This document shows positions 1-24,125 of a DNA stretch of 64,000 nt, in pieces. Under the pieces are notes generated by a model. It was given only the letters and a program-made list of their open reading frames with translations, ran no database searches and was not told the DNA's origin. Made by a program: the position numbers and the translations under genes. Source of the DNA: Myxococcota bacterium (GTDB lineage: Bacteria > Myxococcota_A > Polyangia > Polyangiales > Sandaracinaceae); NCBI GenBank assembly GCA_036149055.1, contig JAYZQJ010000133.1, forward strand, positions 1-64,000, in the 5' to 3' direction. The stretch's first letter is position 1, and each line of letters starts with the position of its first letter.

Positions 1-210
1 GCGAGCCGCAGGGCCCCCAGCGCCCCGTCGCTGGGGTCGCGGGGCCAGCGCGCGAAGCGCGCGAGGCCCCGACGGAGTCGGGAGGGGGGCCCCATTGGCG
101 CTTTGCCCAATGGGGGGAGGGTTTGCACCAAACCCTCCAGCAAGAAGCAGCGGGAGGGGGGCCCCATTGGCGCTTTGCCCAATGGGGGGAGGGTTTGCAC
201 CAAACCCTCC
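1..210 (-). repeat. Partial copy (C) of structured repeat element, truncated by the window start; contains a perfect 60-bp tandem duplication (79-138 = 151-210)
   Basis: Bases 1-41 match the reverse complement of 18218-18257 with 1 mismatch and 1 indel. Each 60-bp unit has hairpins CCCCATTGG..CCAATGGGG and GGAGGGTTTG..CAAACCCTCC. It begins 8 bp after the tatA stop. Confidence 0.85.
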
Positions 211-218
211 GAAAAAGC

Positions 219-461
219 TCAGCGCTCGACGACTTCGGCTTCGGCGACGTCCTCGTCGGCGACGCGCTTGGCGCTCGACTTGGACTCGACCTGCTTGTCC
301 TTCGAGGTGACCTCGATGTCGTCGTCGGACTTCAGCGCGCGCTTGAGGTTGCGGATGCCCTTGCCGAGGCCTTCGCCGATCTGAGGCAGCCGCCCCGCGC
401 CGAAGACGACCAGGACGATCAGCAGCACGATCAGAAGCTCTTGCCAGCCAATGCCACCCAC
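219..461 (-). CDS. tatA: Twin-arginine translocase TatA/TatE subunit
   Basis: [39 protein letters not shown] signature; GTG start with GGAGG upstream. Confidence 0.93.
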
Positions 462-589
462 GTGTTCCTCCTGCGCCGCGAGCGCGACGCGCGCCCGAAA
501 GGTACGGCTACGCCCGAGAACGGGCAAGCGGGCAGGACGTAGCGCGAAGCCCGGCCAGAAGCACGCGACCGCGCTACAGTCGCGCCGCC

Positions 590-1774
590 ATGGCGCGCGT
601 CACCCTCCGCAAAGGTCGCGTCCGGCCGGTCTGGGCCGGTCACCCCTGGGTCTTCGCGCAGGCGATCGCCCGCGTGGACGGGGCCCCGGCCCCGGGCGAC
701 GCGGTCGAGGTGCGCGACCCGGAGGGGAACTTCCTCGGGCGCGGCTTCTGGTCGCCGAAGTCCGCCATCCCCGTGCGCCTCGTCACGCGCGACCCGGCGG
801 AGGCGCTCGACGAGGGCGCGATCGTGCGGCGCATCGAGGCGGCCGGCGCGCTCCGGCAGCAGCTCGGGCTGCCGCGCGAGGGGACCGACGGCTACCGGCT
901 CGTGCACGCCGAGGGCGACGGCCTGCCCGGGCTGATCGCGGACGTCTACCGGGACGTCGCGGTCATGCAGCTGGGCACCCACGGCGTGAAGCGCTTCGAG
1001 GACGTCATCGCCCACGCGGTCGGGCGGGTCTCGGGGGCGCGCACCGTCATCGAGGTGCCGTCGCGTCGCGCGCAGGAGCGGGAGGGGCTCGACGTCGAGC
1101 CGCGCACGCTCCGGGGGCCCGCGGCCAAGCGCCTCGCGTTCTCCGAGCGCGGCTTCGAGTACGGGGTCGAGATCGAGCTGGCCCAGAAGACGGGCTTCTA
1201 CTTCGACCAGCGCGAGAACCGGGCGCGGGTGGAGGGCCTGGCGCGCGGCCGCCGCGTCCTCGACCTCTACAGCTACGTCGGCGCCTTCGGGCTCGCGGCC
1301 GCGCGGGGCGGCGCCGAGATCGTCGACGCCTGGGACAGCAGCGCGGCGGTGGTGGCGGAGGGCGCCGCGATCGCGCACGCGAACGGCCTCGGCGAGAAGG
1401 TCCGCTTCGCCAAGGGCGACGTGCGGCGCGTGATCCAGAAGCTCGCGCAGGACGGAGAGCGCTACGACATGGTCATCCTCGACCCGCCGAAGCTGGCCCC
1501 CACCGCGAAGCACCTCGCGAAGGCGAAGAAGGCGTATCGCCGGCTGAACGCGAACGCGATGGCGCTGGTGACGCGCGGAGGCATCCTCGCCACCTGCAGC
1601 TGCTCGGCGGCGATGACGGAGCCGGACCTGCTGCGCGCGGTGGCGCTGGCCGCGAAGGACGCCCGCCGCGAGGTGAGCCTGCTCGCCGTCGGCCATCAGG
1701 GCATGGACCACCCCACCCCGGTGGCCTTCCCGGAAGGCCGGTACCTCGACTGCGCGTTCGTGAGGGTGTCATGA
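590..1774 (+). CDS. rlmI: RlmI/RlmK-family 23S rRNA methyltransferase (PUA + SAM domains)
   Basis: [44 protein letters not shown] and TCSCS motifs. Confidence 0.85.
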
Positions 1775-2562
1775 GGCCGCTTTCGGAGCTCCCCGACGAG
1801 ACCGCGGCGTCGCTGCGCGGCGTGATCTTCGACGTGGACGACACGCTGACCACCCGCGGGCTCTTGACCGAGGCGGCCTACGCGGCGCTCTTCTCCCTTC
1901 ACCGGGCCGGGCTGAGCCTGATCGCAGTGACCGGGCGCCCGCTCGGGTGGACCGACGCGTTCGCCGCGAGCTGGCCGGTGGATCTCGCCATCGGGGAGAA
2001 CGGCGCGGGCTGGGCCCACCGCCGCGGCGGCGCGATCTCGGTCGGCTACTACCACGACGCCTCGAGCCGGCGCGCCCACGCGGCGACCCTCGACGCGCTC
2101 GTGCAACACGTCCGCGCGAAACACCCCGACGTGCGGGACGCCACCGATCAGCCCGCGCGGCGGTGTGATCACGCGTGGGACGTCGGAGAGCACGACGAGC
2201 TCGCGCCCGAGGCGGTGGAGGCGCTGCGCGAGACCATCGAGGCGGAGGGCGCGCGCTGTCTCGTGAGCTCGGTGCACGCGCACGCGCTCGTGGGCGGCTG
2301 GGACAAGGCGCGCGGCGTCGCCCGGGCCGCCGACCACGTGCTCGGCGCCGACGTGCACGCGGAGCCCTGGCTGTTCGTGGGCGACTCCGGCAACGACGCC
2401 GCCGCGTTCGACGCGTTCGAGATCTCGGTCGGCGTGGCCAACGTGCGCGCTCACCTGCCCGCGCTGACCACGCCGCCCGCGTTCGTCACCGACGCGGAGC
2501 GAGGCGAGGGGTTCGCGGAGCTCGCCGCGAAGATCGTTCGCGCGAGGCGCGCCGATGGCTGA
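1771..2562 (+). CDS. HAD-IIB family hydrolase
   Basis: FDVDDTLT, VTGRP, ENG, DK and GDSGND motifs; ATGA overlap with the upstream gene. Confidence 0.85.
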   Translation: MRPLSELPDETAASLRGVIFDVDDTLTTRGLLTEAAYAALFSLHRAGLSLIAVTGRPLGWTDAFAASWPVDLAIGENGAGWAHRRGGAISVGYYHDASSRRAHAATLDALVQHVRAKHPDVRDATDQPARRCDHAWDVGEHDELAPEAVEALRETIEAEGARCLVSSVHAHALVGGWDKARGVARAADHVLGADVHAEPWLFVGDSGNDAAAFDAFEISVGVANVRAHLPALTTPPAFVTDAERGEGFAELAAKIVRARRADG

Positions 2563-3106
2563 GCGACGCATCCCCGCGCCCCTCGTGCTCGCCGCCGCCA
2601 GCGCCATGCTCGCGGTCGCGGCGGTCGTGTTCTTCGGCCTGCCCGAGGGCGACGCGGCGCCCGAGGAGGTCTCGACCGACGCGAACGCGCTGCGCCTCGA
2701 CGACTCGTCGCCCGAGCTCGTCTCTCAGAGCTTCTACGACGCCTGGCGCCGCCGGCGCTGGAACGAGGCGCTCACGATCAGCACCGGGGCCGCGCGCCGC
2801 GCCGCGCTCGAGAAGAAGGAGCGCGACGACGCGATGCCCCGCGAGGAGCGCATCGTCGCCGAGCGCACCTGGGACGCGCTGTCGCGGGCCCCGCTGTCGC
2901 TCCTGCTCGACGAGGTCGAGATGCTCGAGGGCGATCGCTACCGCCTCGAGGGCGTCGCCGAGTACCAGCTGGTCGGCCAGCCCTACCGTCGACGGGTGAC
3001 GTTCCACGTCGCGCCCGAAGGCGACGCCTACCGCGTGTCCGAGATGGAGCTGGGCGAGGTGTTGACGGATCTGCCGGCGATCTTCCGCGGCGCGGACGGG
3101 CCATGA
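2555..3106 (+). CDS. Hypothetical protein with N-terminal membrane anchor
   Basis: Overlaps both neighbours as in an operon; hydrophobic N-terminus; protein-like composition. Confidence 0.7.
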   Translation: MAERRIPAPLVLAAASAMLAVAAVVFFGLPEGDAAPEEVSTDANALRLDDSSPELVSQSFYDAWRRRRWNEALTISTGAARRAALEKKERDDAMPREERIVAERTWDALSRAPLSLLLDEVEMLEGDRYRLEGVAEYQLVGQPYRRRVTFHVAPEGDAYRVSEMELGEVLTDLPAIFRGADGP

Positions 3107-3891
3107 GCGACTCCGACTTCCCCGAGGCCGACGCGCACTACCGCGACGCCGCGTACTACGACCACGCCTACAGCCGATACAAGCCGGACGTCGCCTTCTA
3201 CGTCGAGCTGGCGGCGGGGAGCGGGGGCCCGGTGCTGGAGCTCGGGGTCGGCACCGGCCGGGTGGCGCTCGCCGTCGCCAAGGCCGGCATCGAGCTGGTG
3301 GGCGTCGACAAGATGACGAGCATGCTGGAGCGGGCCCAGCGGCGCCTGGATCGGGCGCCGCGGCGCCTGAGAGAGCGCGTCTCGCTGGTGGAGGGCGACC
3401 TGCGCGACGTGCGGCTCGAGCGTCGCTTCCCGTTCGTGGCCGCGCCCTTCAACGTCTTCCAGCACCTCTACACCCGCCGCGACGTGGAGCGCGCGCTCGC
3501 GACCTGCGCGGCCCACCTCACCCCGAACGGCCGGCTCGCCTTCGACGTGCTGATGCCGGACCCGATCAGCCTCGCGCGGGATCCCCACCGCTACTACAAG
3601 AGCCGGCCCGTCCGGCACCCCCGCGACGGTCAGCGCTACGCCTACGACGAGGCGTTCGACTACGACGCCGAGCGGCAGGTGCAGACGACGACCATGCGCT
3701 TCTCGGACCTCGAGACTGGCGAGCCCCGCTTCAGCGAGAAGCTGCCCCAGCGGCAGTTCTTTCCGCAGGAGCTCGAGGCGCTGCTCCACTACAACGGGTT
3801 CGAGGTCCTCCGGCTGGACGGAGGCTTCGAAGGCGAGCCGATCGACGCCTACTGCGAGTCGCAGGTGGTCATCGCCCGCCTGCGGCGCTGA
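3103..3891 (+). CDS. Class I SAM-dependent methyltransferase
   Basis: VLELGVGTGRV, VGVD and EGDLRD motifs. Confidence 0.88.
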   Translation: MSDSDFPEADAHYRDAAYYDHAYSRYKPDVAFYVELAAGSGGPVLELGVGTGRVALAVAKAGIELVGVDKMTSMLERAQRRLDRAPRRLRERVSLVEGDLRDVRLERRFPFVAAPFNVFQHLYTRRDVERALATCAAHLTPNGRLAFDVLMPDPISLARDPHRYYKSRPVRHPRDGQRYAYDEAFDYDAERQVQTTTMRFSDLETGEPRFSEKLPQRQFFPQELEALLHYNGFEVLRLDGGFEGEPIDAYCESQVVIARLRR

Positions 3892-5156
3892 CGGATCCAG
3901 GCGGCGAGCCCGAGCGCGCCGAGCCAGAGCCATGGCGCGCCGCCCGAGCCCGAGGCCCGACACGCGCAGCCCTCCACGCCCGGGTCGCGCCCGGGGCCGG
4001 TGGGCCCGGTGGAGCCGGCGTCGACCCTCGCCGTGGCGGCGTCCCGCGCCGGAGGCGTCACTCCCCCGTCGGCGGGCGGGGGCGGGGGCGGCGGCTCTCC
4101 GCTGACCTCGACGCAGACCTGGAGCTGGTCGTCGGGCGGGCCGCCCTGCCCGGGGTCCGAGAACCAGGTGACGCCCTCCTGGACGAGCCCGAACGTCTGA
4201 CAGTGGCGCCCCGGCGTCTCGGGCCCGCGGAGGTGGAAGGTGAACGGGAAGGTCTCCCCCGGCGGCACGGTGCCGTCGACCGCCTGCACGCGGGTGGGCG
4301 ACAGCCAGTCGGAGGCGGCGAGCGGGCTCGCGCCGTCGCGCGGGGTGGGCGCGAGCCGGGTGTCGCCGGTCCAGTCCTCGGTGCCGCTGTTCTCCAGCTC
4401 CAGGGTGCCGATGACCTCCTCGCCCGGGTACAGCGGGATCGGCGCCGCCGACGCCACCGGGAAGGTCTGCATGACGAACGACGCGCCGTAGCGGCCGGTG
4501 GCGACGCAGAGATCCGATCCGAAGCCGCGCGCCGGGCTCCGGCCGAGGCGCGCCTCGGTCTGGGGCCCGTACGCCCCGTCCTCGTCGATGCGGTCGCCGG
4601 GGTTGTTCGCGTTCCACAGCCGCTGGAAGACCAGGACCGACGCCTCGCGCATGTCGGGCCCCGGGCAGTCGTAGTGCACCGCGTCGCTCGAGGGATACGT
4701 CTGGGTGCAGCCCTGACCGGTCATGGCCGAGCGCGCCGCGCCGTAGTTCGAGAGGTCGACCGCCCTCCCCGTCTGATGGTTGCTCCGCCCCGGGCGCGCC
4801 GCGAGACCGCAGCCTCCTTCGTGATACAGGAGATACTGCTGCACCAGGGTCCGGAACGCGCTGGTGACCCGCAGGGACTGCCGATCGGCGGCGGCGCGGA
4901 TGGCGCGGACCGTCTCGGCGGTCCCGAGGGGGTGCACCCGCCCGGACGTGAGCTCGATGTTCGGGTGGGGCGTGAACTCGGAGACCGCGCCGGGGAAGGC
5001 GCAGAGGTGAGACCGCACGAGCTGCTCGCTCAGGCCCTCGACGCCCGCCGTCGTGCAGCCGCCGCGGTGCGAGTCCACCACCTGGTCCACCGTCTGGGCG
5101 TGGGCGAGTGAGGTACAGAGCCAGAGGACGATCACCGGGAGACTGCGTGAGACCAC
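3849..5156 (-). CDS. Secreted M15/VanY-like peptidase with peptidoglycan-binding and NBR1-Ig-like segments and a MYXO-CTERM-like tail (start approximate)
   Basis: SAFRT..QQ and SNHQTGRAVD (SxHxxGxAxD); DGAYGPQT; VPPGETFPFTFHL; GCACRA-TM-RRRRR tail. Confidence 0.75.
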   Translation of the reverse strand: MVSRSLPVIVLWLCTSLAHAQTVDQVVDSHRGGCTTAGVEGLSEQLVRSHLCAFPGAVSEFTPHPNIELTSGRVHPLGTAETVRAIRAAADRQSLRVTSAFRTLVQQYLLYHEGGCGLAARPGRSNHQTGRAVDLSNYGAARSAMTGQGCTQTYPSSDAVHYDCPGPDMREASVLVFQRLWNANNPGDRIDEDGAYGPQTEARLGRSPARGFGSDLCVATGRYGASFVMQTFPVASAAPIPLYPGEEVIGTLELENSGTEDWTGDTRLAPTPRDGASPLAASDWLSPTRVQAVDGTVPPGETFPFTFHLRGPETPGRHCQTFGLVQEGVTWFSDPGQGGPPDDQLQVCVEVSGEPPPPPPPADGGVTPPARDAATARVDAGSTGPTGPGRDPGVEGCACRASGSGGAPWLWLGALGLAAWIRQRRRRAMTTCDSQ

Positions 5157-5286
5157 GACCGTCGGGTCAGCAATCCCCGTTCCCGGGCGGGAAGCTCGGA
5201 AACGGGGCTCCGCGCGGTCTCCAGACCTCACCGATCGCGCCCGGCTGGCGCATCGACCGCTCCGGTGCTGGACACCGGAGCCGCCA

Positions 5287-6675
5287 TCAGCGCGAGCGCG
5301 CCTGGGCCTTGTCGAGCGCCTCCTGCACGATCTTGTTGTGCTCGGCCTCGTCCTTCCAGCGCACCTGCCCCGCCTCGGGCAGGAGGTGGATGGGGTCGAA
5401 GTAGAGGAAGTAGCGGCCGCTCTTCACGCTCGGCGCGGTGTACACGCTGACCCCGGTGGTCCGGTCGTAGTACTCGAAGGAGTGCGCGTCGCGCTTTCCG
5501 CCGCCGCCGGGGGCGTCGACCACGAAGACCGGGGTGTTGAAGCCGGCGGTCACGCCGCGCACGTTCTTCTCGAGCGCGATGGCCGTATCGACCGTGGTCC
5601 GGAGCTCCTCGACGCCCTTCACCATGTCGTGCTGGTAGACGTAGTAGGGCTGCACGTTGCAGTAGCCGAGGCGCTTCACCAGCAGCTGCATCGTCTCGAC
5701 GTCGTCGTTGACGCCGCGCTGAAGGACCGCCTGGTTCCGCACCGTCACGCCGGCGCTGAAGAGCCGATCCATCGCCCGCTTCGTGATGCCGGTGAGCTCG
5801 TTCGGGTGGTTGAAGTGGGTGTGCAGCACCACGTCCTTGGCCATGGTGCGCCCGCGGGCCACGATCTCGGAGAGCGCGGCGAACCAGTCGTCGTCCGAGA
5901 GGACCTTCTGCGGCATGACCGCCGGCCCCTTGGTGGCGAAGCGCATGCGCCGGACGTTGTCGATGTCGAGCAGGCGGTTGCCGATCTCGCGGATCTGGTC
6001 GGCGCGGAGGTTGAACGAGTCGCCGCCGCTGATGACGATGTCCTCGAGCTCCGGGCGGGTCGCGATGTAGGCGAAGATGTCGTCCCAGCGCTTCTTGTTC
6101 GCCTTGAGGCTGACCTTCTCGAGCTCCTCCTGCTCGACGTTCGGCCCGACCGCGTAGCTGCGGGTGCAGAAGCGGCAGTAGACGGGGCAGGTGTCGAGGG
6201 CGAGGAAGAGCGCCTTGTCCGGGTAGCGGTGCGTGAGCCCGGGGACCGGGGAGTCGGCCTGCTCGGCGAGGGAGTCGAAGCGGAGCTTGGGGTGGTCGGG
6301 GAGCCGGGTCGATCCGAGCGGGATGAACTGCCGGCGCAGCGGATCCTCGTAGGGGTTCTCCCAGTCGATCAGGCTCAGCAGGTACGGCGACACCCGGACC
6401 GCCATGGGGGCGCGCGCGAAGCCCTCGGTCGCGTCGTCGAGGAAGGTCGGGCTGGCCAGCTTTTCGAGGGCCGCGAGCAGCTTGTCGACCTTGGTGATCG
6501 ACTTCTTCATCTGCCAGCGGTGGTCGAGGAAGGTCGCCTCGTCCACGTCGGCGTAGGCCGGGATGCGGCGCCAGAAGTCGCCCTCGAGCAGGTCACGGTG
6601 GGCGAGCGTCGTGGGATCCACCGGGGGCCGCTTGGCCCTCGCCGAGTCCTGTCCTTCGATGACCTTCAGCTCCAT
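5287..6675 (-). CDS. kamA: KamA-family radical SAM protein (lysine 2,3-aminomutase-like)
   Basis: CPVYCRFC, THRYPDK, SGGD, NQAVL, PYY and DAPGGGGK motifs. Confidence 0.85.
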   Translation of the reverse strand: MELKVIEGQDSARAKRPPVDPTTLAHRDLLEGDFWRRIPAYADVDEATFLDHRWQMKKSITKVDKLLAALEKLASPTFLDDATEGFARAPMAVRVSPYLLSLIDWENPYEDPLRRQFIPLGSTRLPDHPKLRFDSLAEQADSPVPGLTHRYPDKALFLALDTCPVYCRFCTRSYAVGPNVEQEELEKVSLKANKKRWDDIFAYIATRPELEDIVISGGDSFNLRADQIREIGNRLLDIDNVRRMRFATKGPAVMPQKVLSDDDWFAALSEIVARGRTMAKDVVLHTHFNHPNELTGITKRAMDRLFSAGVTVRNQAVLQRGVNDDVETMQLLVKRLGYCNVQPYYVYQHDMVKGVEELRTTVDTAIALEKNVRGVTAGFNTPVFVVDAPGGGGKRDAHSFEYYDRTTGVSVYTAPSVKSGRYFLYFDPIHLLPEAGQVRWKDEAEHNKIVQEALDKAQARSR

Positions 6676-6915
6676 CGCGTTCCTCTTCTTCGGGTGGCTC
6701 GACGCGCAGGGGCGGAGCCACGCAGGGGAAAGCGGCGCCATACCACAGCGGCTGGCCTTCCGCACGGGGGCGTCGGCGCCCCTCCGTGACGAAAGTTTGA
6801 CATGGATCTCGGGGTGTTCCACCAACGAGGCAGCCGCGAAGGGAGCCGAATCGTGTTGAGCCAGCCCGTTGTCGATGCCATGCAGAGCCCTGCCCCGCGG
6901 CAGGAGAACGCGACG

Positions 6916-7914
6916 ATGAAGGACCGCCTGCTCTTCCTGATCTCGACCCCGCGCAGCGGCTCGACCTTGATGCAGCGGATGCTGAGCTCGCACAGCGAGA
7001 TCTTCACGCACCCCGAGCCGCATCTGATGACGCCGCTCGCGCACCTCGGCTACTACGACAAGGTCGACAAGGCGCCCTACGACCACATCAACAGCGCCGA
7101 GGCGATGCGCCTCTTCGTCGAGCACCTCCCGGGCGGCGAGGGCGACTACCTCGACGCCCTGCGCGCCTACGCCGACACGCTCTACGGGCGCATGCTGGAG
7201 CCGAGCGGGCAGCGCTACTTCCTCGACAAGACGCCCGCCTACGCGCTGGTGCTCGACTTCGTCGCCAAGGTCTACCCCGAGGCGAAGTACGTGGTCCTCA
7301 CCCGCCACCCGCTCGCGATCTTCAGCTCCTACGCGAACTCGTTCTTCGACGGGGACTGGCGCGCGGCCCACGACTACAACCCGATCGTCGAGCGCTACGT
7401 GCCGGCCATCGCGCGCTTCCTGCGGGAGCGCCCCGTGCCCCTCACCCACGTGCGCTACGAGGAGCTGGTCGAGACCCCGGAGGCGCACCTCGAGCGGGTC
7501 TTCGCGTTCCTCGGCATCGAGCACGAGCCGGAGGCGGTGGACTACGGCGAGCGCTCCGAGCAGGCGAAGGGGCCGGGAGACCCCATCGGCGTGCACCAGC
7601 ACAAGCGCCCGGTGACCGACTCGCTGCACAAATGGGCGGCGGAGCTGGCCGCGGACGACCGCAAGCTCGCCCTCGCCCGGCAGATGATCGACCGCGTCGA
7701 TCCCGACGATCTCGAGCTCTGGGGCTGGCCGCGGGAGCGCGTGTTCGACGCCCTCGAGGAGGCGGGCGGGCAGGCGCCGCCGGAGCCGGTGCTCAACAGC
7801 TACACCTTCCAGCGCAAGGTCATGCTCGCGCTCAAGAAGGACATCCACCGGCGGCCCCACGGCAAGGTCATCCGAAAGCTCCGCTACTACTGCGACGTCC
7901 TCCTTCGGGAGTGA
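6916..7914 (+). CDS. Sulfotransferase family protein
   Basis: PRSGSTL PAPS-binding loop, LDKTP, RHPLAIFSS and VRYEELV. Confidence 0.88.
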   Translation: MKDRLLFLISTPRSGSTLMQRMLSSHSEIFTHPEPHLMTPLAHLGYYDKVDKAPYDHINSAEAMRLFVEHLPGGEGDYLDALRAYADTLYGRMLEPSGQRYFLDKTPAYALVLDFVAKVYPEAKYVVLTRHPLAIFSSYANSFFDGDWRAAHDYNPIVERYVPAIARFLRERPVPLTHVRYEELVETPEAHLERVFAFLGIEHEPEAVDYGERSEQAKGPGDPIGVHQHKRPVTDSLHKWAAELAADDRKLALARQMIDRVDPDDLELWGWPRERVFDALEEAGGQAPPEPVLNSYTFQRKVMLALKKDIHRRPHGKVIRKLRYYCDVLLRE

Positions 7915-8020
7915 TGGAGCACGAAATGCTCCGCGCGGAGCCCGGAGCGCTCCACGCTCCCGCGAGCCGCACGATCGGTGCGCAGCCGGGGTCGGCCCAC
8001 CTCGTGCTGTACCGGCGGCC

Positions 8021-9688
8021 ATGCGGAGGTCCACCCCCCTCTGTTCGCTCGCCCTCGCCTGCCTGGTGGGTTGCCAAGGTTTCGTTGGTGACACTCCGTC
8101 CAGGCCGGGCGACGGCGAGCGGCGCATCCCCGAAGGCGTGGTCGTGCCCGCGCCCCAGACCCGCCTCGCCCGCCTGACCCACACCCAGTGGGAGAACACG
8201 GTCATCGACCTGTTCGGCTTCGACGGGCCGACCGGCCTTTCGGAGGCGCTGCGGGCGGACTCGCTGCCCGGCGAGGCCATCTTCGACAACCCGGGCGGCG
8301 CGCTCGACGTCGACGAGGTGCTCTGGAGCGGCTACCAGCGGGCGGCCGGCGTGCTCGCCGAGCGGGCCACCACCGACGAGGCGATCTTCGCCCGGATCGC
8401 GCCCGAGACCGGCGGCGACGACCGCGATCGGGCGACCCGCTTCGTGCGGGCGTTCGGAGAGCGCGCGCACCGGCGGCCGCTCACCGACGACGAGGTGTCG
8501 GAGTACGTGATGCTCTACGACTCCGCGTCGGGCCTCTACGGCGCCACCGACGACCTGCACTCCGGGGTGCGCCTGGTGCTCGAGGCGATGCTCCAGTCGC
8601 CCTTCCTCCTCTACCGGGTCGAGCTGTCGAGCGCGCGAGAGAGCGGCACCATCCCGCTCGACGACCACGAGATCGCCAGCCGCCTCTCCTACGCGCTCTG
8701 GGACAGCATGCCCGACGAGGAGCTCTTCGCGGCCGCGCGCGCCGGCATGCTGAGCGACCCGGAGAGCGTGGCCGTGCAGGCGCGGCGCATGGTCGACGAT
8801 CCCCGCGCCGAGGCGGTGTTCGTGCGCTTCCACCGCCAGCTCTTCGACGTGGACGACTTCGAGGGCATCGCGCCCTCCCCCGACCGCTTCCCGGACGCGC
8901 CGCGCGATCTGGGCGCGCTGGCGGCCGAGGAGCACGACCGCTTCGTGCGGGAGATCGTGTTCGGCCGGGACGGCGGCTACCGGGACCTGCTGACGTCGCC
9001 CGACACCTTCGTGAACGCCGAGCTCGCCGCGATCTATGGCGTGCCGGGGAGCTTCGGCGAGGCCATGGAGCTGGTGACGCTCGATCCCGCCCAGCGGCGC
9101 GGCGTCTTCACCCAGATCGGCTTCCTCGCCTCGAACGCGACCCAGACGAGCCCGGATCCGATCCACCGCGGCGTGTTCCTCGCCGAGCGCATCGCCTGCG
9201 TGCACATCGACGCGCCGCCGGACGACATCACGCCGCCTCCGGTCATCGAGGGCGCGACCAACCGCGAGACGGTCGCGAACCACACGGAGCAGCCGGGCTC
9301 GCGCTGCGCCGGCTGCCACGCGCAGATCATCAACCCGTTCGGCTTCCCCTTCGAGAGCTACGACGCCACCGGCGCGTGGCGGGAGATCGACAACGGGCAG
9401 CCGGTGGACACGACGGGGAGCCCGCCGATCGACGGGGTACCGACCCCGGTGGGCGGCGCGGTGGAGCTCGCCGACGCGATGGCGGAGAGCACCTGGGTGC
9501 ACGAGTGCTACGTGCGCCACTGGGTGGAGCGCACGATGGGCCGCCACGCCGAGCCCGAGGATCAGGCGCTCGTGAGCCAGCTCGCGGAGGGCTCGCGGGA
9601 CGGCTCGTTGAGCATCCGCGAGCTCGTGGTCCAGATCGTGACGTCGCGCGCGTTCCTGCACCGGAGCACCCGGGAGGTGAGCGAATGA
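8021..9688 (+). CDS. DUF1587/1595/1592/1588-type lipoprotein
   Basis: Lipobox LVGC; RLTHTQWENTVIDL; LQSPFLLYRVE; EIASRLSYALWDSMPDEEL; PIHRG; CAGCH..INPFGF. Confidence 0.85.
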   Translation: MRRSTPLCSLALACLVGCQGFVGDTPSRPGDGERRIPEGVVVPAPQTRLARLTHTQWENTVIDLFGFDGPTGLSEALRADSLPGEAIFDNPGGALDVDEVLWSGYQRAAGVLAERATTDEAIFARIAPETGGDDRDRATRFVRAFGERAHRRPLTDDEVSEYVMLYDSASGLYGATDDLHSGVRLVLEAMLQSPFLLYRVELSSARESGTIPLDDHEIASRLSYALWDSMPDEELFAAARAGMLSDPESVAVQARRMVDDPRAEAVFVRFHRQLFDVDDFEGIAPSPDRFPDAPRDLGALAAEEHDRFVREIVFGRDGGYRDLLTSPDTFVNAELAAIYGVPGSFGEAMELVTLDPAQRRGVFTQIGFLASNATQTSPDPIHRGVFLAERIACVHIDAPPDDITPPPVIEGATNRETVANHTEQPGSRCAGCHAQIINPFGFPFESYDATGAWREIDNGQPVDTTGSPPIDGVPTPVGGAVELADAMAESTWVHECYVRHWVERTMGRHAEPEDQALVSQLAEGSRDGSLSIRELVVQIVTSRAFLHRSTREVSE

Positions 9689-12086: not shown

Positions 12087-12181
12087 CCCGGAGCGCGGCG
12101 CGCTCCGACCGGGGGCCCGGATCGCCCGCTCGAACCGGGGGCACGGTTCTGGCGTACCGTTCGGACATGTACAGTCGGGGA

Positions 12182-13129: not shown

Positions 13130-13584
13130 GCGACGACGAGGCTTTCATGCAGGAGGCGCTCGCCGAGGGGCGCCGCGCGATGCCGGCCTGCCGGCCCAAT
13201 CCGCCGGTGGGCTGCGTGCTCGTGCGGGCGGGCGAGATCGTCGCGCGCGGGCACACCCAGCCGCCCTACCAGCCGCACGCCGAGCCGATGGCGCTGCGGC
13301 AGCTCGAGGGGCCGCTCGGCGACGTGACCGCCTACGTGACCCTGGAGCCGTGCGCGTTTCACCAGCGCACCCCGAGCTGCGCCAAGGAGCTGGTGCGGCG
13401 CGGCGTGGGGCGCGTGGTGGTCGCGATGCTCGACCCGCACCCGAAGAACCGGGGGCGCGGCCTCCAGATGCTCGAAGACGCCGGGATCGAGGTGATCACC
13501 GGCGTCTGCGAGGCGGAGGCGAGGCGAGACCTCGCCATGCTGGTCTGGCAAGAGGGGGACCCAGCCGAGCTGGATCCCGAGTAG
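13126..13584 (+). CDS. ribD: RibD-type pyrimidine deaminase, stand-alone (no reductase domain)
   Basis: PNPPVGCV, HAE, YVTLEPC..RTPSC and DPHP motifs; only 152 aa. Confidence 0.75.
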   Translation: MSDDEAFMQEALAEGRRAMPACRPNPPVGCVLVRAGEIVARGHTQPPYQPHAEPMALRQLEGPLGDVTAYVTLEPCAFHQRTPSCAKELVRRGVGRVVVAMLDPHPKNRGRGLQMLEDAGIEVITGVCEAEARRDLAMLVWQEGDPAELDPE

Positions 13585-13587
13585 TAG

Positions 13588-16347
<2,760 letters not shown>

Positions 16348-16393
16348 GGCGTCGGCGATGTACCACGAGCCAGGGGCCGGATCGACCACCACG

Positions 16394-16425
16394 AAAAACG
16401 CCGCCCGGGGGTCCCCGAGCGGCGT
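16394..16425 (-). terminator. Intrinsic terminator after the cfa-like gene
   Basis: Minus strand ACGCCGCTCGGG..CCCGGGCGGCGT GC stem followed by a T run. Confidence 0.7.
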
Positions 16426-16448
16426 CCCTCAACGGGCTGACCGAGCCC

Positions 16449-17303
16449 TCAGACCTCGCACCAGCGGAGCTTCAGCTGGACGTCGCTGGACCAGTGGGCG
16501 TCGAACGCGCGCACGCAGGTGTCGAGGTAGCGCTCGTAGTCGTCGTAGACCTTGTCGCCCCACTGCTCGCGGATCTTGGCCTCGTTCGCCTGGAGGCGAC
16601 GCAGCCACTCGCCGGTGGTCTTGCCGTAGCTCTCACGCTGGGTGCGCATCTCGACGACCTCCCAGTAGGGACGGATCGCCATGATGAGCTCTTCCAGCCG
16701 CGGGTTGAGGCCGCCGGGGAAGATCACGTCGGCGGTGAACGCCAGGTCCTCGAGGTCCTTGCGGGTGCGCGGCACGCGATCGCGGAGGATCGCCTGGCAA
16801 GCGAACCAGGCGCCGGGCTTCACGAAGGAGTGACAACGCTTGAAGTACTCCCGGTAGAGATCGACCGCCTTGCCCTGACGGGCCTGCTCGGGAGAGCAGA
16901 TGTGGTCGATCATCTCGATCGACACGAGCGCGTCGTACTTCTCCTCCGGCTCGTAGTCGTGGAAGTCCATCAGCTTCGCGGTCACGCCGGGGAGCTTCCG
17001 GTCGTTGATCCACTCCGCCTGCGCGGTCGAGAGCGTGATGCCGTGGGACCGCTTCACCCCGCGTGAAGCCAGGTACTCCAGGTTCGATCCCCAGCCACAG
17101 CCGATGTCGAGGATCAGCTTGTCCTCGTTCATCTCGGCGTAGTCGTAGAGGATGCGGCACTTGTTGAGCTGCGCCTCCTCCAGGGTCTCCTCCCCAGTGA
17201 AGTAGCTCGCCGAGGTGTAGTGCATGCCCTCGTCGAGCCACAGCCGGAAGAAGTCGTTGGAGACGCTGTAGGACTCGTCGATCTCGCTCTGCGTGGACGT
17301 CAT
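16449..17303 (-). CDS. Cyclopropane-fatty-acid/mycolic-acid synthase family methyltransferase
   Basis: YSVSNDFFRLWLD, LEEAQLNK, ILDIGCGWG, GITLS..Q, VSIEM and IFPGG. Confidence 0.88.
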   Translation of the reverse strand: MTSTQSEIDESYSVSNDFFRLWLDEGMHYTSASYFTGEETLEEAQLNKCRILYDYAEMNEDKLILDIGCGWGSNLEYLASRGVKRSHGITLSTAQAEWINDRKLPGVTAKLMDFHDYEPEEKYDALVSIEMIDHICSPEQARQGKAVDLYREYFKRCHSFVKPGAWFACQAILRDRVPRTRKDLEDLAFTADVIFPGGLNPRLEELIMAIRPYWEVVEMRTQRESYGKTTGEWLRRLQANEAKIREQWGDKVYDDYERYLDTCVRAFDAHWSSDVQLKLRWCEV

Positions 17304-17474
17304 GGGCGGGCAGCATGTACCGATCGCCCCGCGCCTTCCACCCCAAAAACGCCCCGGACGTCCCCATCCGAGGACAGCGATCGGCGGTTGCTTTCGCGGG
17401 CGTCGGCTTCGTGGTAGAGCGGTCTTCGACGTTTCGGAGCCGGATTCAAACGTACTTTCAGTGGGAGGACGCGC

Positions 17475-17933
17475 GTGGCGAGAAGTCGAAAGACGAGCAA
17501 GACCAAGAGCGGCGGACGCGGCAGCAAAGAGGCGATCGCCAAGCGACGCGCGGCGCGGCAGCTCAATCAGCTCTTCAGCGAGGGTGGCAACCGCGGACGT
17601 GGCCTCGACGGCCGCACCGAGAAGCGCCGCCAGCGGCTCCTCAAGGAGCTGAAAGAAGGCAAGAAGGGCAAGCCCCTGAAGGCCATCGAGGTCCTCACTC
17701 ACACCCACGAGCTGCTGGAGCTCGGTGAGACGATCACCTCGATCAAGAAGACCGGCGCCAAGCCGGTGAAGGCGGAGCTGAACGCCGAGGACATGGAGAT
17801 CGTCGAGGCGACCCAGAAGGAGTACGGCTTCCGCGAGGACGCGTGGAAGATGCTCGGGGTGAGCCTCGGGAGCGCGGGTCGCGGCGCCAAGAAGAAGACC
17901 GCCAAGAAGACGCGTCGCAAGAAGACGTCGTAG
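17475..17933 (+). CDS. Highly basic hypothetical protein
   Basis: GGAGG then GTG start; K/R-rich termini; GC-ending codon usage. Confidence 0.8.
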   Translation: MARSRKTSKTKSGGRGSKEAIAKRRAARQLNQLFSEGGNRGRGLDGRTEKRRQRLLKELKEGKKGKPLKAIEVLTHTHELLELGETITSIKKTGAKPVKAELNAEDMEIVEATQKEYGFREDAWKMLGVSLGSAGRGAKKKTAKKTRRKKTS

Positions 17934-17945
17934 CTTCGATCGGGC

Positions 17946-17973
17946 TGGACAGCCCCGCCGAGTCTGGTATAGC
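17946..17973 (+). promoter_or_regulatory. Putative sigma70-type promoter of tRNA-Cys
   Basis: TGGACA-16 bp-TATAGC with an extended TGn, 22 bp upstream of the tRNA. Confidence 0.4.
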
Positions 17974-17995
17974 TCCCAGCCTCCCTCAGGGGAGT

Positions 17996-18067
17996 GGCGC
18001 CGTAGCCAAGTGGTAAGGCAGAGGTTTGCAAAACCTCCATTCACCGGTTCGAATCCGGTCGGCGCCT
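17996..18067 (+). tRNA. tRNA-Cys(GCA), CCA end not encoded
   Basis: Acceptor stem GGCGCCG/CGGCGCC; D arm GCCAAGTGGTAAGGC; anticodon arm GAGGT-TTGCAAA-ACCTC; T arm ACCGG-TTCGAAT-CCGGT. Confidence 0.96.
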
Positions 18068-18322
18068 GTTCCTTGCTGGGAGGGGCTTTCAGCCCCTCCC
18101 CCCCGCTGCGCCGTCAGACCTGTCACCGCTCCGGGTGCTCCGCACCCTCCGCAGTGACGGGTCAGTCGGCTTCACGGGGCCCCCCCACCCAATTCCGCGC
18201 CCCTCGCTTCGCTCGGGCGCGACCCCAGCGCGGGGCGCGGGGGGCCCTGCGGCTCGCGCTCGCGCGGCGCGCGAGCTGGCCGCCCGTTGCCGCGGGATCG
18301 AACCGGGCGAAGTGGTTCGTGC

Positions 18323-18498
18323 GGCGACCTCGCTCCGCTCGTCGCCTTCCGGGGTCGTGCGGCGACTTCGCTGCGCTCGTCACCTGCCGTTGGCGGAGGG
18401 CGACCTCGCTCCGCTCGTCGCCTGCCGGGGTCGTGCGGCGACTTCGCTGCGCTCGTCGCCTGCCGTTGGCGGAGGGCGACCTCGCTCCACTCGTCGCC
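18323..18498 (+). repeat. Five REP-like 24-bp palindromes with an exact 38-bp period
   Basis: GGCGACYTCGCTSCRCTCGTCRCC at 18323, 18361, 18399, 18437 and 18475; two 14-bp linkers alternate. Confidence 0.9.
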
Positions 18499-18554
18499 TC
18501 GTGCGCCGCCTTACGCCATCCCCGTCGGTGCTGCGCCTCCGCCGGGCTCCGGGG

Positions 18555-18797
18555 CTCGGTGTCGGACGGCGGACTCGGGTTCGGACGGCGGACTCGGGTT
18601 CGGTGTCGGACTCGGGTTCGGGGTCGGACTCGGGTTCGGGGGCGGACTCGGGTTCGGGGTCGGACTCGGGTTCGGGGTCGGACTCGGGCTCGGTGTCGGA
18701 CTCGGGCTCGGTGTCGGACTCGGGTTCGGTGTCGGACTCGGGTTCGGGGTCGGACTCGGGTTCGGGGGCGGACTCGGGTTCGGGGTCGGACTCGGGT
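18555..18797 (+). repeat. Degenerate hexamer tandem repeat (TCGGNN)n
   Basis: TCGGAC/TCGGGT/TCGGGG/TCGGTG units with an 18-bp higher-order period. Confidence 0.9.
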
Positions 18798-18857
18798 GGG
18801 TCGCCGGCTCGGCCTGCCCGAAGGGCACGCTCGGCTCTTGGCTGCTAACTACAGAGC

Positions 18858-19661
18858 ATGCGCTTGGCTTTGGTGGTCGTTCTCGCCTTCTCCTTCGGCT
18901 TGGGCTGTGATGGCGAGGGGGGCGAGGACGCGGGGGCGGACTCGGGGATCGATGCGGGGATCCGGGACGCGGAGGCTCCGGATGCGCCGCCGCCGATGTG
19001 TGAGCCGGGCTGTGAGGACGCGGAGACTTGCTGCGCGGACCCCGGGGGCGGGGAGAACGCTTGCTACGCGCTCCGCACCGATCCGGAGCACTGCGGGACG
19101 TGCGGGACGAACTGCGTCGCCTCGAACCGCGGCGACGGGTGCCGGTCGAGTCAGTGCACCTGCGGCGACGACTCGTTGGGGTGCCGCGGGACCCTCGAGG
19201 ACTTCTGCTGCCCGCCGCGCGAGGACGGGGGGCAGGCCTACTGCGCCAACCTCGCGCTGTCGGCGACCGACTGCGGGGGGTGCGACTCGGCGTGTGATCT
19301 GCGGCGGTCGGACCGCTGCGACGGGGGGCGCTGCGTGTGCGGGCTGGCCCGGGAGCCCTGCGAGGGGACGCCGGAGTCGACGTGCTGCGTGGACGAGCCC
19401 GACATCGGCTGCGTGGACACCACGTCCGATCGTTTCCACTGCGGGGAGTGCAACAACCTCTGCCAGGGGGGCGAGCGCTGCGAGGACGGGACCTGCACGC
19501 GCGGGGGCGCCTCCTGCGGGGGCTGCGCGCTCGGAGAGGTGTGCTGCGATGGCGCCTGCTGCTCGCGCCGGGAGTGCCTCGCGGGGACGTGCGGCGCGAC
19601 GCCCGACGCCGGGGCCCCGGACGCGGGCGCCCCCGACGCAGGCGCGCCGGACGCCGGTTGA
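18858..19661 (+). CDS. Cys-rich repeat lipoprotein
   Basis: GLGC lipobox; three CC..C..(H/D)CGxCxxxC repeats; about 39 Cys; PDAGA tail. Confidence 0.8.
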
Positions 19662-19694
19662 CGGGGCGACCCGGCGCTTTGCTCACGTTCGTCG

Positions 19695-20639
19695 TCAGAG
19701 CCGGACGCCGCGGACGACGCGGAGCGCTCCGCCGGCGCGCTTGCCGACCGCGCATAGCTGCCCGGACGGGGCCAGCAGCGCGACCGGCTCGCAGCCGTCG
19801 GGGACCGCCTCGGCGCCGCTCGCGTGACGCAGCGCGATGGCCCGACCGTGCGCGGCGTCGGTCTCCCCGCGCTCGTCGAGGGTCACCCGCGGCATGCCGC
19901 GGCAGGCGGCGGCGAGCTCCAGCAGCCGGGCCCGCGCCTCGGCCCTCGCGGCCTCGTCGGGCGCTTCCCGGTCCGCGGCGCGCGCGAGCGCCTCTCCGTC
20001 GAACGCCTCGTCCAGCCCGAAGGGACCGCTCTGGACGCGACGCAGCGCCACCAGGTGACCGCGGGTGCCCATCGCGCGAGCGAGATCGCCGCCGAGCGAG
20101 CGCACGTAGAAGCCCTTGGACGCCTCGACCTCGAGGTCGATCGCGTCGGGCCGGACCGCGAGGATCTCGAGCCGACGCACCGTCACCTGGCGCTCGGGCG
20201 CTTCGACCGCCTCGCCGCGCCGGGCGCGCGCGTGGAGCGGCTCGCCGTCCACCTTGATTGCGCTGAAGATCGGCGGGCGCTGGGTGATCGTGCCGACGAA
20301 GGCCTCGGCCGCCCGGCGCGCGTCCTCGAGCGTGAAGGGCGGGACCTCGGCGCGCTCGACGACCTCGCCTTCGGCGTCGAGGCTGTCGGTCTCCGCGCCG
20401 AGCGACACGGTCGCCCGGTAGATCTTGTCGTCGTCGGTGAGCCAGCGGACGAGCTTGGTGCCCTCCCCGACCGCGAGGACCAGGACGCCGGTGGCCATCG
20501 GATCCAGCGTGCCCGCGTGCCCGACCGCGCGGGTCCCCAGCGCGCGCCGCGCCCAGGCCACGACGTCGTGCGAGGTCGGCCCCTTCGGCTTGTCGACCAC
20601 GAGCACGCCGTGGACGTCGCCCTTCTTCTTGCGCGCCAT
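19695..20639 (-). CDS. truB: tRNA pseudouridine(55) synthase
   Basis: [35 protein letters not shown] and SKGFYVRSL. Confidence 0.95.
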
Positions 20640-21604
20640 CAGTCGCCGTCGAGGAGCCGCGCGGCGAGGTCGACGACCTTCACCTCGGTGGCCTTCAGGT
20701 CGTCGGGCACGTTCGCGCCCGCCGCCGAGCGATGCCCGCCGCCGTCGAGCGCCGCGGCGATCCGGGAGACGTCGGCGTCGCCGCTCGAGCGCAGGCTCAC
20801 CTTCGTCTCGCGCTTGCCGTCCTTCTCCATCTCCCAGAGGAGCGCGGCGATCTCGACGCCCTCGAGCATGCGACCGTAGTTGACCATCCCCTCGACCATC
20901 TCGTCGTCGGCCTCGAGCCGGGCGAGCATCTCGCGGGTGACCCGCTGGAGCGCGAGGCGCCCGTCGAGGAGGACCTCCATGTCGTCCAGGATGGCGCCGA
21001 GCAGCTTCATCCGCGCCGGCTCCCAGCCCTCGAAGAGGTGATAGGCGGTGTCCCACGGCACCGCCCCCGCCTCCACCAGCTCGGCCGCGAGCCGGAGCGT
21101 CTCGGGGCTGGTGGCCGGGTAGCGAAAGCCCCCGGTGTCGGCGACGATCGCGGCGTAGAGCGGCGCGGCCACGCCGGGCGGGAAGCCCTCGATGCCGAGC
21201 TCCCGCATCACCCGGACGACGACCACCCCGGTCGCCGCCGCGTCGGGCTCGCGGAGGATCACGTCGCCGAAGTCGTCGTGCGCCGCGTGGTGGTCGAACA
21301 TCACGACCGGCCCCTCGAGGCCGTCGGGCATCGCCGGCACGAGCGCGCGCGCGGCCGCGTCCATCACGAAGCAGGCGTCGAAGGTCCCGGTCGGCGGAAC
21401 GCGCTCGACCTCCGCGATCGCCAGGAACCGCAGCATGCGCGGCGGCGGATCCACGCTGTAGACCACGGCCTCCTTGCCGATGGAGCGCAGCGCCGCCGCC
21501 CACCCGAGCGCGGAGCCGAGCGCGTCCGCGTCGGGCCGGCGATGACACGTCACCGCGAAGCGCCGCCCCTCCCGCACCACCCGCAGCGCGTCCTCGCGGC
21601 TCAC
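20639..21604 (-). CDS. nrnA: DHH/DHHA1 phosphoesterase (NrnA-like)
   Basis: [24 protein letters not shown] and GGGHRSAAG. Confidence 0.88.
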
Positions 21605-21975
21605 GCGTCGTCCTCCTGCCGGATCTCCTCGAGCAGCTCCTCGACCCGCTGCGCGCGCTCGGTCGTCTCGTCCCAGAAGAACTTCAGCTCCGGTGTGTAC
21701 CGGATCTGCAGCCGCTGGCCGAGCTCGCGCCGGAGGAACCCCGAGGCCCGCTCCAGCCCGCGCATCAGCCGCTTCACCCGCGACGCCCCCGGCTCGAGCT
21801 CGCCGAGCCGGACGTAGATCTTCGCGTGCCGGAGATCCTTCGAGACGATCACCTCGTGCACCACCGCCCCGGACACCCCGGGGTCCTTCACCGCGCCGGT
21901 GAGCAGCAGCTCCATCAGCTCTGCCCGGATCCGCTCGCCGACCCGCCCGGGTCGTCCGCCGTCAGTCTTCGCCAT
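21601..21975 (-). CDS. rbfA: Ribosome-binding factor A
   Basis: RVGERIR, VKDP, VSKDLRHAKIYV, GFLRRELG and RYTPELKF. Confidence 0.93.
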   Translation of the reverse strand: MAKTDGGRPGRVGERIRAELMELLLTGAVKDPGVSGAVVHEVIVSKDLRHAKIYVRLGELEPGASRVKRLMRGLERASGFLRRELGQRLQIRYTPELKFFWDETTERAQRVEELLEEIRQEDDA

Positions 21976-22366
21976 CGTCCTCACCAGCTTCCAGCCAAGC
22001 CTCTTCCGCGTCGAGGTCCCAGTCCGCCGCCATGCCCCCCAGGGACGGGCCGCCGACCGCGCTCATGTGCTCCCCGTCCCCGAGGTGAACGATCTCGAGC
22101 GATCGCTCCACCAGCGGCGCGTCCGTCGAGCCCTGCACCTGCCCGATCACCGCGTCGATCATCGAAGACGCGTGGCTCGCCGAGTTGCTCACCACCGCCA
22201 TCCCGAGCACCGCCCGGCGATGCACGTCCATGTCGGCCACCTCCGCGATGGCCACGTTGAACCGGTGCCGCACCCGATCGATCACCCGGCGCACCACCTT
22301 GCGTTTCCCCTTCAGGGAGTCGTTCCCGTGCAGAGCCAGGACGATTCGAGCCACCGCGATCACCAT
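21962..22366 (-). CDS. DUF503 (YlxP-like) protein
   Basis: SLKGKRKVV and RFNVAIAEV motifs; position directly upstream of rbfA. Confidence 0.88.
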   Translation of the reverse strand: MVIAVARIVLALHGNDSLKGKRKVVRRVIDRVRHRFNVAIAEVADMDVHRRAVLGMAVVSNSASHASSMIDAVIGQVQGSTDAPLVERSLEIVHLGDGEHMSAVGGPSLGGMAADWDLDAEEAWLEAGEDDGED

Positions 22367-22411
22367 GGAGCCACCCAGAGCGCAGAGCGCCCCCTCCGAA
22401 GGATGAGGCGC

Positions 22412-23233
22412 GAAGCCGAGCCCGACACCGAGCCCGACGCCGAAACCGAATCCGAAGCCAAGCCCGACGCCGAAACCGGGCCCGAAACCGACACCGAGTC
22501 CGAAACCGAAACCGAAACCGAGCCCGAGCCCGAGTCCGACACCGAGTCCGACACCGAGTCCGACACCGAAACCGACACCGAGTCCGAACCCGACACCGAG
22601 TCCGACACCGAGTCCGACACCGAGTCCGACACCGAGTCCGACGCCGACACCGAGCCCGACGCCGACACCGAGCCCGAGCCCGAGCCCGAGTCCGACACCG
22701 AGCCCGACGCCGACACCAAACCCGACACCGAACCCGAACGCCGAGCTCCGTCGCAGCCCAAACACCGACGGGAGATGACGTGAGGCGACGAGCGAAGCGA
22801 GGTCGCCCACCGCCAACGGCAGGCGACGAGCGAAGCGAAGTCGCCGCACGAAGCCGAGAGGCGACGAGTGAAGCGAAGTCGCCGGGAAGCGCCAGCGCGG
22901 GCGACGAGCGAAGCGAGGTCGCCCGACGCACGAACACGGGAGGCGACGAGCGAAGCGAGGTCGCCGCACGAGCCACCCTGCCCGGTTCGATCCCGCGGCA
23001 GCGGGCGGCCAGCTCGCGCGAAGCGCGAGCGCGAGCCGCGTGGCTCACGCGCCCTGTTCGAGGGTGAGGAGCGCGGGACCCGCGGAGTCGAGCGAAGCGA
23101 GAATCCGCGCAATTGGGTGGGGGGGCCCCGCGGAGCCGGCTGACCCGTCACTGCGGAGGGTGCGGATGCACCCGGAGCGGTGGCGGGTCTGACGGCGCAG
23201 CGGGGGGGAGGGGCGGAAAGCCCCTCCCGGCAA
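22412..23233 (-). repeat. Composite structured repeat element, copy B (inverted relative to A)
   Basis: Starts TTGCCGGGAGGGGCTTTCCGCCCCTCCC 2 bp after the RMD1 stop; five palindromes at 22784, 22822, 22860, 22900 and 22942; hexamer tract at about 22412-22745. Confidence 0.9.
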
Positions 23234-23235
23234 AC

Positions 23236-24093: not shown

Positions 24094-24125
24094 TGGCCAC
24101 CGCAGGCGCCACCCCCACCTTCAGG

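Follow-up and report, generated by a model that had tools for sequence, protein, structure and literature searches.

In a Sandaracinaceae bacterium (Myxococcota; GenBank assembly GCA_036149055.1, contig JAYZQJ010000133.1), the initial 64 kb of contig C133, hereafter the window, carry three copies, A, B and C, of a hairpin-rich, gene-less repeat element that belongs to a real, genome-wide family and that mostly sits, in the sense direction, a few bases behind the stop codons of its host genes, in other cases behind other gene ends. Across the family, copies show consistent placement and orientation and a target bias, occupy sites that can be filled or empty in relatives, have TGA-like words on both sides without inverted repeats, and fold into hairpins with DNA-type loops. 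With moderate confidence, we interpret the family as a non-autonomous mobile element that is moved as single-stranded DNA and predicted to be pasted just 3′ of a D-Y-TGA word by an enzyme for which no candidate was found.

A genome-wide family of stop-linked repeats

Modules of the element were located by scanning the whole genome (G000; 9.9 Mb, 73% G+C, 289 contigs), in which a self-trained caller, not an annotation, predicted 8014 genes and missed short ones. The scans recovered 278 fragments, each containing at least a head, a core or a palindromic unit; of these, 212 touch a contig end (106 as heads, 92 as headless tails); because many fragments are heads or headless tails at contig ends, we estimate roughly 170 elements. 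An element consists, in order, of a spacer, hairpin 1, hairpin 2 with a variable insert, a C-run, core hairpins, one to several palindromic units and a tail, and complete copies measure about 250–350 bp among the 37 copies listed. Heads number 195 and fall into four subfamilies (H1, 111; H2, 29; H3, 30; H4, 25), and modules point one way in all but 9 of 355 module clusters. An earlier, sequence-only reading of the window had described a unit of 0.7–0.8 kb that included a hexamer tract. Such a length is atypical, the usual unit being about 300 bp, and the tract is a separate repeat, which occurs at 84 places in the genome, lies within 300 nt of an element at 10 of them and accompanies just 10 of the 278 fragments.

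Placement was assessed on 140 primary H1–H3 heads, with 27 internal and 3 contig-edge heads set aside. As many as 130 lie 2–17 nt behind a same-strand stop (123 TGA, 7 TAG), and the others lie behind tRNA 3′ ends (2), facing a tRNA 5′ end (1) or elsewhere (7). Once overlap with the stop is allowed, 132 of 140 heads (94%) are stop-linked, the spacer measuring 7 nt in 75 of them and 6 nt in another 24; a random intergenic position would be stop-linked at most 6.4% of the time. Measured against YTGA sites, of which 3688 are at stops and 6927 elsewhere between genes, 35% would be expected (p = 6e-50). The last sense codon of the hosts is biased as well, with C at the second base in 4% versus 30% and C or T at the third base in 91% versus 51%; Tyr, His and Cys are enriched 12.6-fold, 8.7-fold and 7.5-fold, respectively. 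The next gene is convergent for 100 of 165 fragments, compared to 36% genome-wide. Between gene end and first hairpin, the spacer is T-rich and comes in 84 distinct versions among 130; across 58 H1 copies its diversity is 0.28, eightfold that of the body (0.034). Orientation and distance to stops, tabulated genome-wide, are not random and, together with the empty orthologous sites described below and the absence of a matching Rfam family, support the sequence-only reading's suggestion of a non-autonomous mobile mosaic with 3′-end targeting.

The family extends beyond its host. The gapped head pattern matches 25 of 301 genomes of the order (a tally that includes the unpublished G023, on which alone no claim rests), and a reversed-pattern control matches 0; G000, G001, G003, G017, G019, G143 and G159 are among the carriers. 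The inner stems of both hairpins, read by eye from the match list, vary between genomes yet stay complementary. Scanning a genome collection returned at least 88 stretches; 70 of the 80 titles listed are myxobacterial and 10 bear other labels, the myxobacterial labels among the matches listed being Sandaracinaceae, Polyangiaceae, Kofleriaceae, Nannocystaceae and Myxococcota. By a crude open reading frame (ORF) test, 34 of 90 collection loci are stop-linked, 47 fall into an 'other' class that includes tandem heads, tRNA ends and chance matches, and 9 are at edges; copies behind tRNAs and behind a 5S rRNA end were identified by eye. Viral contigs gave two matches, both chance-like. An Rfam 15 scan of window positions 1–25000 returned only the tRNA and a weak CsrC match outside the element, and seven further loci gave none, so that the check proposed earlier turned up no known RNA family. 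No description of the family was found in the literature searched, most subscription papers and the supplements of surveys on repetitive extragenic palindromes (REPs) lying outside that search.

Filled and empty orthologous sites

Empty orthologous sites, which the earlier reading had suggested looking for, do exist. We compared 57 heads called primary, a few of which proved internal, with the same-genus sister species G001. Among 44 orthologues at the junction, 28 are empty (one at a contig end) and 16 filled; eight heads have no orthologue and five orthologues aligned too far off. Sites filled in both species often hold another or a species-specific subfamily. Empty stop-codon sites in G001 lack the T-rich spacer, and the D-Y-stop ending is mostly kept in the orthologues inspected. 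Other G001 copies lie after terminator U-tracts that are present in the empty orthologue too, after tRNA ends, or facing gene 5′ ends.

Five more loci were compared between two near-complete relatives, G003 and G019. In the cleanest pair, with flanks 96% identical, G003 is empty, and in G019 the copy is placed after TGA and before the bases that follow the stop in the host itself; this copy ends in a second TGA, compatible with a 3-bp duplication. The pyk and rpoZ sites are filled in one of the two relatives and empty in the other, pstB holds a decayed remnant, and pdhA a different, related repeat. Across relatives, G003 and G001, members of two genera, carry different subfamilies behind rpoZ, whose stop lacks an element in G019, G013, G149, G004 and G000. 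At strain level, sequencing run X2 differs from copy B at two of seven spacer bases, and the alignments of other runs stop at the spacer. A separate locus on C157 of G000 (L271:12900–14500) holds an H1 element and a 1.2-kb gene. In G001, only 1 base separates the two genes flanking them, and the orthologue of the 1.2-kb gene lies elsewhere; cargo movement or rearrangement is possible.

A sister subfamily docks by its opposite end

H4 is about 115 bp long and consists of near-identical copies with the head grammar of H1–H3 (for example, G000 C169:25512–25629, and about 40 other places). Only 3 of 25 H4 heads are stop-linked. At the tail, 32 of 42 distinct matches end in TTCA, and in 21 of these 32, counted by eye, this TCA coincides exactly with a called convergent gene's stop; at the remaining TTCA-ended copies mostly no gene is called. 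H4 docks by the end opposite to that used by H1–H3 and is reversed relative to the mRNA. Read along the host gene, H4 starts with TGA, enters a hairpin at once and ends in CTGA or a variant, and H1–H3 start behind YTGA and have TCGA, TTGA or CTGA tails in most copies listed. Empty sites of H4 were sought in G001, where synteny was broken at the loci compared. Terminal inverted repeats are absent from H4 and from H1–H3 alike, in agreement with what had been read from the window, and the element ends are unrelated.

GC-closed triloops of the type T-N-C on the sense strand, equivalent to G-N-A on the opposite strand, make up 143 of 372 in elements and 203 of 1986 in coding DNA, the element copies not being independent. 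GCGNAGC is described as an extra-stable DNA mini-hairpin whose RNA analogue is far less stable and melts far lower (excerpts of PMC13037366). The lower DNA folding energy of the opposite strand (55/55) was not used as evidence, as that strand is G-richer.

Copies A, B and C and their hosts

The three window copies lie where the sequence-only reading had placed them. A and B belong to H2 and C to H1. As noted before, A and B are colinear: their heads are 91% identical across 145 nt, and each has five palindromic units. All three copies are more stably folded than shuffled sequences (RNA z −6.0, −4.9 and −4.2 for A, B and C; 0/200 shuffles each). Each follows a gene 3′ end in that gene's orientation (tRNA-Cys, DUF155/RMD1 and tatA), as had been claimed, at spacers of 10 nt (A), 7 nt (B) and 8 nt (C) to the first hairpin instead of the 2–8 bp given earlier. 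Copy C is indeed homologous, and is 'partial' merely because the window begins at base 1 of contig C133; it holds two heads, in a 72-bp tandem duplication at 79–218. The features are as follows.

1–210, minus strand: copy C, H1; tandem heads (first hairpins at 210 and 138), then core hairpins, truncated by the start of C133
211–218, minus strand: copy C spacer, T-rich, 8 nt
219–428, minus strand: tatA (TatA_B_E), host of copy C, TGA at 221–219 (gene call, domain match)
17996–18067, plus strand: tRNA-Cys, host of copy A
18068–18077, plus strand: copy A spacer, T-rich, 10 nt
18078–18190, plus strand: copy A head (H2); hairpin 1, long hairpin 2, C-run
18191–18300, plus strand: copy A core hairpins, whose loops are of the GNA type when read on the opposite strand
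18323–18498, plus strand: copy A palindromic units, five in tandem, 24 nt, period about 38
18570–18797, plus strand: hexamer-based tract adjoining A, a separate repeat family and not integral
22416–22746, minus strand: hexamer-based tract adjoining B, a separate repeat family
22784–22965, minus strand: copy B palindromic units, five in tandem
22985–23228, minus strand: copy B head and core (H2); junction toward DUF503 possibly chimeric
23229–23235, minus strand: copy B spacer, T-rich, 7 nt (the spacer that differs in run X2)
23236–24057, minus strand: DUF155/RMD1 gene, host of copy B, TGA at 23238–23236; the G001 orthologue has no element

Copy B calls for caution. Here it is flanked by RMD1 and DUF503-rbfA, whereas in the sister species G001 infB, an element and DUF503 lie in a row and RMD1 carries no element; in addition, infB of this genome is followed by an element head where contig C56 stops (C56:1–700), with 36 bases identical to B. 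Because of this conflict in gene order and the infB head on C56, B may have been joined chimerically in the assembly or have arisen by rearrangement between two copies. The RMD1-element-DUF503-rbfA order (window 21600–24100) likely reflects a misjoin or recombination between two copies, and no contig from four strain-level runs was shown to bridge B.

Other observations concern the surroundings of the copies. Behind tRNA-Cys, G001 has only a decayed hairpin-1 remnant, plus a 1.7-kb convergent gene missing from the window (C57:64750–66853). Hexamer tracts and palindromic units contain long stop-free frames that the gene caller accepted (window 22403–22783, plus strand; 18511–18848), giving false annotations. 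Short in-frame tandem repeats also occur within predicted genes at window positions 24726–24815 and 53804–53898 (periods 21 and 9–27).

Search for a mobilizer

A partner gene beside a copy, either a REP-associated tyrosine transposase (RAYT) or a GIY-YIG nuclease, had been suggested earlier, and none was found. The nine Y1 (PF01797) matches of this genome were rejected as the mobilizer, being flanked by a different repeat or none, and neither these nor the 23 Y1 genes listed in relatives are flanked by the element; PF01797 matches occur in 8 of 16 relatives. The genome has three GIY-YIG matches, the one small gene inspected lacking an element flank, one weak DUF559 match and one reverse transcriptase match with no link to the element shown. 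IS91-type searches gave zero matches and were uninformative, as no control matched. Among genes neighboring the copies no nuclease recurs, and clusters comprise only kinases, response regulators and other large families. IS110 genes are present in 13 of 17 genomes and absent from G000, G014, G017 and G002.

Several loci met in this search are of separate interest. Seven of the Y1 genes encode RAYT-like transposases of about 235 aa (L001–L007; G000 C132, C4, C83, C116, C198, C143 and C29), most of which have numerous inverted copies of another, 17-nt repeat on their flanks, in a REPIN/REPtron-like arrangement unrelated to the element. A second Y1 family (L008 and L009, at the ends of G000 C191 and C144) consists of two near-identical copies truncated by contig ends and sharing an upstream leader. 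In G008 (C49, L331), an IS200/IS605-type tnpA adjoins another uncatalogued hairpin-rich repeat. IS110-family genes have an element fragment within about 500 bases at L361 and L371 (G134) and L359 (G001), and these could be IS110 insertions into the repeat. Finally, ten four-helix-bundle (PF05635) genes (L010–L019), several of them near contig ends, are possible partners of simple-sequence or hexamer tracts.

Proposed mechanism and alternatives

If the element is moved as single-stranded DNA, its chemistry may be a strand-specific 'peel-and-paste' like that of IS200/IS605 and REP systems, with the hairpins serving as protein-binding sites and the left target and right end as similar words. Excerpts of the respective papers describe nearly alike target and right-end motifs and gene-less, PATE-like (palindrome-associated transposable element) copies for IS200/IS605 (PMC10055086), strand-specific chemistry with guide-directed cleavage for TnpA-REP (PMC8266576) and a preference of IS608 for highly transcribed rrn genes (PMC5027513). 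An extra factor beyond the target word is needed, because of the excess over the YTGA null and the use of tRNA, 5S and terminator ends. In transcribed DNA, only the non-template strand would be accessible, and only where nascent RNA has neither ribosome cover nor a fold; stop codons, tRNA and 5S ends and terminators would be such exposed places. Insertions that break reading frames would be lost, and the T-rich spacer would be written imprecisely with every insertion. Fresh heads insert into older copies too, giving mosaics and tandem arrays. A bolder and unlikely reading is that the target is found through the end of translation or RNA maturation and not through DNA sequence alone. The enzyme, neither a recognizable Y1 nor IS91, would then insert where the footprint of the terminating ribosome ends, or else at the ends of tRNAs, 5S RNA or terminators, rewriting 6–10 host-side bases to T at each event. 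E. coli REPs located near a stop are able to stall ribosomes.

Several observations weigh against pasting of single-stranded DNA. No mobilizer was found, with candidates possibly hidden at contig ends or, as divergent HUH enzymes, escaping the Pfam model; the near-complete carriers G003, G019 and G134 (1–2 contigs; 7, 16 and 4 strict element copies, respectively) have no PF01797 match, and the IS200-type genes of relatives G001, G008 and G017, rejected as candidates, have their own, unrelated ends. No conserved guide word precedes the first hairpin; the spacer found there varies more than any other part. The sites include each of the three stops as well as terminator U-tracts, a 5S end and tRNA ends, so that one tetranucleotide target is insufficient. 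Replication-strand counts of 33:23 versus 2176:2125 show no clear bias, in a crude test on a weak, unimodal skew. G·T mismatches on the sense strand outnumber A·C (21 versus 10 distinct contexts), hence folding is not confined to the opposite strand. At some filled sites (L175, L118/C227 and L170) T-enrichment extends to the final codons while the reading frame and the position of the stop are retained, which clean pasting does not predict. Lastly, eight strain-level runs revealed no empty allele at four sites among the alignments listed, a weak negative since contigs break at the repeat.

The family could also spread and be renewed by host recombination without a dedicated transposase, in which the T-rich leader anneals to look-alike words at gene ends (D-Y-TG, CTTG) and gene conversion overwrites copies, leaving patchwork spacers. 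The 16 of 44 sites filled in both species, with species-specific or different subfamilies, fit this idea, as do spacers that exceed the body eightfold in diversity and are not the same in near-identical strains, last codons partly overwritten in frame (including at pyk), near-complete carriers without a transposase, and synteny often broken at elements (without a control comparison). RecA-type recombination, however, hardly yields new insertions at empty genes from 4–6 bases of homology, the H4 ends are sharp and constant, and the G019/G003 pair is a clean insertion with host bases kept; we regard this route as unlikely. Attachment at the RNA level, with ribosome-trimmed RNA 3′ ends, tRNA trailers or terminator ends being joined to element RNA or DNA through an untemplated T-rich stretch and written back, is quite unlikely. 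It would explain why the sites are natural RNA-end neighborhoods (all three stops, terminator U-tracts, a 5S end and the 3′ ends of tRNAs, among them those for Cys, Met and Ala), the offset fixed at 6–8 nt and spacers that vary even for heads inside other copies, but the D-Y-TGA bias and DNA-type loops indicate DNA recognition, H4 docks reversed and without a spacer, some copies face gene 5′ ends (L036, L040 and L166), and the genome's single reverse transcriptase match has no shown link to the element.

Selection instead of targeting would account for the placement if the repeat were kept as a 3′-untranslated region (3′-UTR) RNA element acting in stability, processing or termination. The sense strand folds strongly and has the G·T excess over A·C, convergent junctions are enriched (100/165 versus 36%), and the same housekeeping genes are occupied repeatedly (infB, rpoZ, pdhA and tRNAs). 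Effects of REP and YPAL repeats on upstream transcripts have been described (excerpts of PMC3733652 and PMC2229807). We nevertheless consider this explanation decidedly unlikely, given that the element is missing from 28 of the 44 orthologous sites and remnants decay, that the host genes are functionally unrelated, that H4 is antisense to H1–H3 and no Rfam family matches, and that selection alone would require purging of most other insertions, yet other repeats fill intergenic DNA freely. The sequence-only reading's alternative of a repeated structured RNA is weakened by a DNA-type loop rule on the strand opposite the mRNA, patchiness between species and an antisense sister subfamily; a secondary RNA effect is compatible with a mobile element. 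That the copies are assembly artifacts, a possibility raised earlier, is extremely improbable for the family: although 212 of 278 fragments lie at contig ends and junction B is at odds with the infB-DUF503-rbfA order of the sister species, copies lie within single- or two-contig genomes, independent runs share gene-to-head junctions, and the head pattern matches 25 of 301 genomes against none for the reversed control. Copy B alone may be chimeric.

Relation to known repeat families

The family works like REPs, bacterial interspersed mosaic elements (BIMEs) and PATEs but fails membership of both groups, REP/BIME and PATE; we claim no new class for it. With REP/BIME repeats and their RAYTs it shares high-copy, intergenic, gene-less hairpins, mosaics, tandem arrays and convergent-gene enrichment (excerpts of PMC3733652, PMC8266576 and PMC6006769), as well as the location near gene 3′ ends, where REPs of the GTAG type often contribute a TAG stop through their termini (PMC3733652, in part). 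In contrast to REPs, its first hairpin is preceded by a variable T-rich spacer instead of a conserved GTAG or CGTC tag, its modules point one way instead of forming alternating REP/iREP pairs (9 of 355 loci mixed), its multi-hairpin unit spans 110–350 bp, and no RAYT gene is flanked by the element. Gene-less IS200/IS605 derivatives such as PATEs resemble it in lacking terminal inverted repeats and in their subterminal hairpins, oriented placement 3′ of a short word and target-like right end (sections of PMC10055086). They differ in that no cognate TnpA or TnpB was found for the element and no guide could be assigned at its left end, and in the element's hypervariable left spacer, near-absolute restriction to gene ends and replication-strand counts without a clear bias.

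BRE of Betaproteobacteria is likewise small, GC-rich and built of several hairpins; it begins with a T-run, forms tandem arrays, is patchily conserved at its loci and has an unknown mobilizer, and the direction of the upstream gene is consistent in table 3 of that paper; however, it measures about 90 bp, has at most 29 copies per genome and belongs to a different phylum (PMC3110155, in part). Compared by eye, the element bears no visible sequence likeness to two BRE sequences from the same excerpts. YPAL/RU-2, ERIC, RUP and NEMIS are, like the element, non-autonomous intergenic repeats, co-transcribed with upstream genes, and YPAL further resembles it in lacking TA termini; YPAL targets dyad symmetry (excerpts of PMC2229807). 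YPAL and miniature transposable elements with inverted repeats (MITEs) are set apart by the element's modular, branched architecture, its lack of TA termini and terminal inverted repeats, and the absence of a 3–26-bp target duplication beyond a possible TGA.

Significance

In practical terms, the element lies at over a third of the assembly's contig ends (212 of 578 bear a module), where chimeric joins are possible, and it gives rise to spurious ORFs. On the questions of how REP-like repeats spread and why many sit behind stops, this family is uncommonly clear-cut: 94% of its heads are stop-linked, its target word can be measured, two subfamilies dock by opposite ends, orthologous sites are found both filled and empty, and some carriers have no Y1 match. 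Together, these features make targeting by transcription or translation directly testable and point to an unknown mobilizer that inserts without harm to genes. If insertion were indeed guided by translation or RNA ends, it would constitute a safe-harbor route of transposition.

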